Assembly (NCBI GenBank): GCA_947258555.1
Contig: CAMYJF010000002.1
Coordinates: 12,070-76,069 of the forward strand
Direction of reading: 5' to 3'
DNA: 64,000 nt
DNA from: an uncultured Eudoraea sp.
GTDB taxonomy: Bacteria > Bacteroidota > Bacteroidia > Flavobacteriales > Flavobacteriaceae
Part shown: positions 61,942-64,000 of the stretch, one piece after another
Layout of the letters: every line of letters begins with the position of its first letter
How positions within the stretch are numbered: position 1 is the stretch's first letter
Made by a program: the position numbers and the translations under genes
Notes under the pieces: model-generated
What the model was told of the DNA's origin: nothing
Seen by the model: only the letters and a program-made list of their open reading frames with translations
The model's database searches: none

Positions 61942-64000
<2,059 letters not shown>

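Follow-up and report, generated by a model that had tools for sequence, protein, structure and literature searches.

In this study, we have found that the uvrA gene on the minus strand of the window (the whole stretch of 64,000 nucleotides that was analyzed) is interrupted by an exact 11-bp tandem duplication at positions 63009 to 63031, a feature that comprises two copies of CGTCCGATTCC plus 1 nt and that was established from the sequence itself, from Tandem Repeats Finder, and from the alignments of relatives. We consider it probable that slipped-strand replication produced a real and very recent duplication, which is revertible and which leaves UvrA inactive or crippled in one strain; if the tolerated and programmed variants are counted together with the inactivating allele, it is likely that the mutation is real. 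On this reading, it is a private polymorphism and is neither a lineage trait nor a programmed device.

On the minus strand, the site reads ...GATATCAAGA CGTCCGATTCC CGTCCGATTCC CTTACTGCCGGCTATTTGA, and Tandem Repeats Finder reported a period of 11, 2.1 copies, and a match of 100% at 63009 to 63031, which confirms the tandem 11-mer described in the initial annotation. Across the 64-kb window, the uvrA repeat was the only perfect tandem of two or more full copies with a period of 10 to 15. By chance, 0.07 perfect tandems of period 10 to 15 per window, and 0.03 of a period of at least 11, are expected from first-order Markov simulations; the repeat is exact and the only one of its kind, and an origin by chance was rejected.

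The duplication divides the gene between two open reading frames. The N-terminal part of the class I uvrA gene occupies positions 62991 to 64000 (minus strand), where the reading frame (62991 to >63998) is open at the end of the window, and the N-terminal ~244 codons of the gene fall beyond window position 64000. This part specifies the insertion (DNA-binding) domain as well as two motifs of the first ATPase module, the signature and Walker B, and it ends in ...KTSDSRPIPLLPAI*, that is, in 9 aberrant codons followed by a TGA at 62993 to 62991. The C-terminal part, of 350 codons (61942 to 62994, minus strand), lies in the -1 frame relative to the N-terminal part and encodes the second ATPase module with the zinc module. 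Its nominal TTG start overlaps the stop of the N-terminal part as TTGA; in the intact frame, this TTG encodes the Leu of the conserved YLNG motif, and the frameshift has exposed it. With the frame broken at 63009 to 63031 and a stop at 62991 to 62993, no single full-length polypeptide (~925 to 950 aa) is encoded. A single-copy reading of the gene, made for comparison only, runs for 681 residues through ...GTLDDIKTSDSLTAGYLNGTSAIALPAKRR... with no stop. The earlier description of the split frames, the 350-codon C-terminal part, and the TTGA overlap was thus accurate in all details when compared with the list of open reading frames, and its statement that dropping one copy restores the conserved linker was borne out by the single-copy reading, which aligned with no gap to the orthologues and to the Thermotoga maritima UvrA structure 3PIH.

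The identification of the gene as uvrA also held, since both parts matched NF001503, the NCBIfam UvrA equivalog model (TIGR00630). The N-terminal part matched profile positions 245 to 587 (333 bits; E = 4e-99), and the C-terminal part matched positions 596 to 941 of 943 (474 bits; E = 1e-141); the whole-protein cutoff of this model is 1147 bits, and each piece scores below it because the gene is split and is cut by the end of the window. The motifs present are LSGGESQR and ILDEPSIGLH, GVSGSGKST, LSGGEAQR and IFDEPTTGLH, and the Cys-x2-Cys (CxxC) zinc pairs. Judged from these sequence features, the gene is a class I uvrA gene, for which the class-distinguishing UvrB-binding domain would fall beyond window position 64000; an orthologue of 925 aa (P0001, 94% identical) carries PF17760 (UvrA_inter).

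The single-copy reading aligned to residues 254 to 914 of 3PIH and equally well to other solved class I UvrA proteins. The junction, DDIKTSDS/LTAGYLNG, was aligned with DELLKNPDSSLTGEYLSG of 3PIH, in the linker around residues 559 to 575, which places the break where the first ABC ATPase module is joined to the second; in the NF001503 profile, it corresponds to positions 588 to 595, likewise between both ABC modules. The gene therefore resembles the class I UvrA proteins of known structure (3PIH and Geobacillus stearothermophilus 2R6F) in that both halves match the equivalog model and carry the ABC signatures, Walker motifs, and zinc modules; it differs from them in that its coding sequence is interrupted by the 11-nt insertion.

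Comparison with same-species populations indicated that the extra copy is an insertion. Contigs of the same species from eight sediment metagenome runs (X1, X2, X10, X9, X5, X17, X19, and X8; ~7 studies; ~97 to 98% identity to the window) span the site with exactly 11 nt missing at 63009, and the two-copy form was absent from every contig in the 16 metagenome runs compared. Two of the spanning runs, X2 and X10, which match the window best, share a longest Logan record of 37,626 nt although each is filed under a sample and study of its own; these data sets may be related and not fully independent. A 61-nt stretch across the junction had no holder among the indexed runs, a weak result that derives from only three sampled words, and a pattern that covered both the one-copy and the two-copy forms had no match among the JGI metagenome contigs, where a protein-based scan returned relatives at no more than 76% amino acid identity. 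A search of metagenome runs with the window sequence returned related sediment populations only, with a word share of at most 0.46. When 8 kb was compared with the best runs, the dominant strains were 2 to 3% different, and identical unitigs were only short and of low depth. The species occurs widely in metagenomes from marine sediment.

More distant relatives gave the same result. In a DNA alignment, all nine Flavobacteriaceae genomes lacked exactly these 11 nt, and uvrA is one stop-to-stop frame of 926 to 990 codons in 75 of the 75 Bacteroidota loci with readable coordinates. The closest proteins in a collection of 5.8 billion were two of 925 aa in length (94% and 93% identity) and a third, partial one that had 687 aa and 95% identity; among the best 120 protein matches, almost all were 924 to 954 aa, and the sole shorter one was a partial gene at the end of a contig. 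Look-ups of exact sequences returned no recorded protein identical to the C-terminal half (with an L or M start) or to the 449-aa protein encoded next to uvrA. Three contigs from two congeneric lineages (82 to 89% nucleotide identity) have a single copy at the site. These contigs, L161 and L162 (82 to 83%) and L163 (89%; from the NCBI metagenome-assembled genome [MAG] GCA_018679315.1, "Bacteroidia bacterium"), are syntenic with the window for up to 10 kb. Comparison with the uvrA genes of close relatives had been proposed in the initial annotation, which allowed for a split that is conserved among orthologues; no orthologue shares the split, and a single copy was present in all of the relatives and populations examined. 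On the sequences compared, this assembly alone has the extra copy, which is not a lineage trait. The best named UvrA matches (Flagellimonas, Poritiphilus, Maribacter, and Zobellia) were ~80% identical at the amino acid level, the lineage having no cultured close relative, and nucleotide identities of 82 to 89% were reached only by metagenome contigs and the one NCBI MAG (GCA_018679315.1).

The remainder of the gene bears no mark of decay. In an alignment with 75 relatives, 223 columns show at least 95% conservation; the two halves retain every one of them, and the alignment contains one gap column and no further insertion. The duplication appears to be recent because the gene shows no other decay; as read from the alignment, it is either evolutionarily very recent or was never present in the DNA. 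An ancient or decaying pseudogene was rejected, as there is a single lesion, all of the conserved columns are kept, and there is no other indel. The initial annotation had proposed a recent slipped-strand duplication that inactivates the gene: its recency is supported by the retention of 223 of the 223 columns, while the inactivation is predicted. Furthermore, the differences in uvrA between the population and the window fall mostly at every third base (for example, at 62830 to 62845), a pattern which suggests that the population allele is under purifying selection.

Comparison of the metagenome contigs also revealed a strain-variable codon that adjoins the repeat on its 5' side at 63030 to 63032 (minus strand). 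This codon, which is hypervariable among strains that co-occur, is ACG (Thr) in the window and GCG (Ala), GGG (Gly), or AAA (Lys) in contigs from other strains. The CG of the window's codon is present in each of the two repeat copies, which suggests that the duplication arose on the allele of this strain. The Logan unitigs of several runs stop within a few bases of this codon.

The surrounding assembly is of good quality. The window is 94% coding and its genes are of normal size; four overlapping same-strand pairs of open reading frames proved to be separate complete genes, with full-length Pfam domain matches for six of the eight frames. Between 36 and 56 kb, 11 indels distinguish the window from the population contigs, all of them 1 to 2 nt in length and all in intergenic spacers according to the map of open reading frames. 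Between 56 and 64 kb, a single other indel, a compensating 1-nt pair, accompanies the duplication. Over the 28 kb compared with the population, the sole frame-changing indel within a coding region is thus the uvrA duplication; a generally sloppy assembly was rejected on this ground, because the overlapping frames are separate complete genes, and because the window holds no other perfect tandem of period 10 to 15. The small spacer indels are located at 36340, 36403, 42157 to 42165, 47188, 49036 to 49045, 52774 to 52778, and 55265. In runs X2 and X9, the contigs join 47142 to 47265 and skip or replace 122 nt of spacer; this strain-specific segment lies in the intergenic spacer between a gene that ends at 47155 and a gene that starts at 47409.

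We postulate that one replication-slippage event duplicated 11 bp within the class I uvrA gene of one strain, at a site where the flanking microhomology is only 1 nt (the unit starts with C, and the next base is C). As the sequence shows, the insertion of 11 nt shifts the frame in the flexible linker between both ABC ATPase modules, so that translation ends 9 aberrant codons later and gives a product of ~590 aa. Such a product would comprise ATPase module I, including the domains inserted in it, and lack module II and the C-terminal zinc module; the C-terminal 350 codons are left with no proper start of their own. Since UvrA requires both ATPase modules, the allele is in all likelihood a null or a strong hypomorph with respect to nucleotide excision repair in this strain, as far as can be judged from its coding sequence. 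A mutator or UV-sensitive phenotype, also raised in the initial annotation, might conceivably follow, which is speculation. Because the two copies are exact and adjacent, the precise loss of one would restore the gene, and the lesion should be revertible; the instability of tandem repeats is the basis on which such reversion is expected.

Several alternatives must be weighed against an inactivating slippage mutation. The main rival is that the organism has a single copy and an intact uvrA gene, with the second 11-mer introduced by assembly, consensus calling, polishing, contig joining, or library preparation, a reading that we regard as rather unlikely. All of the independent same-species sources show one copy, and the two-copy form was seen in the assembly alone; the gene is otherwise perfect, and a core repair gene is broken here but intact in every relative, a picture that an error would be expected to give. 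The site adjoins the strain-variable codon at which unitigs break, where local reassembly or polishing of reads from a mixed population could err, and short tandem insertions can be generated when a long-read consensus is called, when a polisher reassembles a region locally, or when contigs are joined by hand. Because the lineage has no cultured close relative, the genome itself may be metagenome assembled. However, the record of coding indels and perfect tandems given above argues against an assembly that is generally error prone, and an exact duplication of 11 nt is an untypical kind of sequencing error. It also matters how an assembler could produce such a structure: there are no k-mer repeats at a spacing of 11 nt, so a short-read contig with the duplication would imply reads that contain it, and a de Bruijn-graph assembler supplied with single-copy reads should be unable to create an 11-nt tandem.

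Two further readings accept the duplication as real and dispute its effect. One is that it is tolerated, with termination at the TGA, reinitiation at the TTG, and noncovalent assembly of the halves, which we consider highly unlikely; that the strain in fact lives with a two-piece UvrA whose halves reassemble across the intermodule linker, with nucleotide excision repair kept, is slightly less likely again. The break does lie in the linker between the ABC modules, and Myles and Sancar reportedly found in 1991 that proteolysis of Escherichia coli UvrA at this hinge gives separable folded domains. In addition, the stop and the possible start overlap as TTGA, some synthesis of the C-terminal half is possible, and all of the conserved residues are kept in both halves. 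Intact residues are, however, equally explained by a recent event; the TTG corresponds to the Leu of the YLNG motif and is a weak start with no sign of a dedicated initiation region, and a split at this site, which is found in no orthologue examined, has no evolutionary support. The other reading is a programmed device, either a phase-variable repeat that turns uvrA on and off or a programmed ribosomal frameshift across the extra 11 nt, and is scarcely credible. An exact tandem is able to expand and contract by slippage; however, only two copies of the 11-nt unit are present, and the eight populations and all of the congeners are uniformly single copy and show no length polymorphism. These observations lend no support to the reversible on/off switch of the initial annotation as a designed feature, and a phase-variable contingency locus was rejected because the copy number is invariant (one) in the eight runs and in the congeners. 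A programmed frameshift would need to be a -1 shift to rejoin the frames, but no slippery heptamer of the form X XXY YYZ occurs between the repeat and the stop (TCC CGT CCG ATT CCC TTA CTG CCG GCT ATT TGA), and the site is conserved in no orthologue, the orthologues being one continuous frame. A programmed ribosomal frameshift was rejected on these two grounds, as no heptamer is present and no orthologue shares the frame junction.

Short tandem duplications that throw a housekeeping gene out of frame are well known as lesions, and the uvrA duplication adds one more example. Spontaneous frameshifts that arise by short tandem duplication through replication slippage are exemplified by the CTGG hotspot of lacI. 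The uvrA allele is like such frameshift alleles in that it has an exact head-to-tail copy of a short unit, a length that is not a multiple of three, and a premature stop, and in that it is precisely revertible and private to one lineage. It differs from them in that its unit is 11 nt with 1 nt of microhomology and that it represents a single step from one copy to two; unlike the lacI hotspot, the uvrA site has no preexisting repeats. The likeness to the phase-variable contingency loci of Neisseria and Haemophilus is that a change in repeat number toggles the reading frame. However, wild-type uvrA has no repeat tract, no copy number polymorphism was seen in the eight populations, and uvrA is a housekeeping repair gene rather than a surface or restriction gene.

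Bacteroidetes also have class II UvrA paralogues (UvrA2, DrrC, and Ecm16), in which the UvrB-binding domain is missing and whose capacity to stand in for the class I protein is unclear (PMC9328131). Ecm16 cannot replace class I UvrA, and other class IIa proteins make at most a slight contribution to UV repair (PMC9328131). These paralogues share the UvrA fold, and this genome could carry one of them as its second uvrA-like gene; the window gene differs from them in that it is orthologous to 925-aa class I proteins that carry PF17760. Our search of the literature on tandem-duplication pseudogenes of uvrA and on uvrA paralogues in Bacteroidetes yielded no specific report; the sole relevant find was what PMC9328131 states in general about class II proteins.

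The main value of the duplication is as a flag for read-level verification, since it would be an ordinary event under either main reading, mutation or error. If it is real, the strain is a natural uvrA frameshift mutant that is expected to be sensitive to UV and to bulky DNA adducts and to be revertible, and it represents a small case of standing loss-of-function variation, within a sediment population, that affects a core repair gene on which purifying selection otherwise acts. An artefact would serve as a useful indicator of assembly quality, as uvrA would be misannotated as a pseudogene. Whether mutation or artefact, it leaves the knowledge of nucleotide excision repair unchanged, and only the unlikely two-piece reading is of mechanistic interest; if that were true, the strain would be a natural experiment showing that UvrA can do without a covalent connection between its two ABC modules.

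The neighborhood of the gene provided some minor observations. Directly downstream of uvrA, positions 60467 to 61816 encode a secreted protein of 449 aa that is rich in Tyr, Gly, and Asn and has an Arg/Ser/Lys/Thr tail. Its counterpart occupies the same position in the congeners (at 7254 to 8594 of contig L161), is 446 aa in length, and has no Pfam match; as judged by this conserved position, the gene is lineage conserved and not an oddity of the strain. The same contig carries, at 800 to 1391 and ~3 kb upstream of uvrA, genes for a HigB-like toxin and a helix-turn-helix (HTH) antitoxin, which lie beyond a divergent ECF sigma factor gene in a region whose counterpart is located outside the window.
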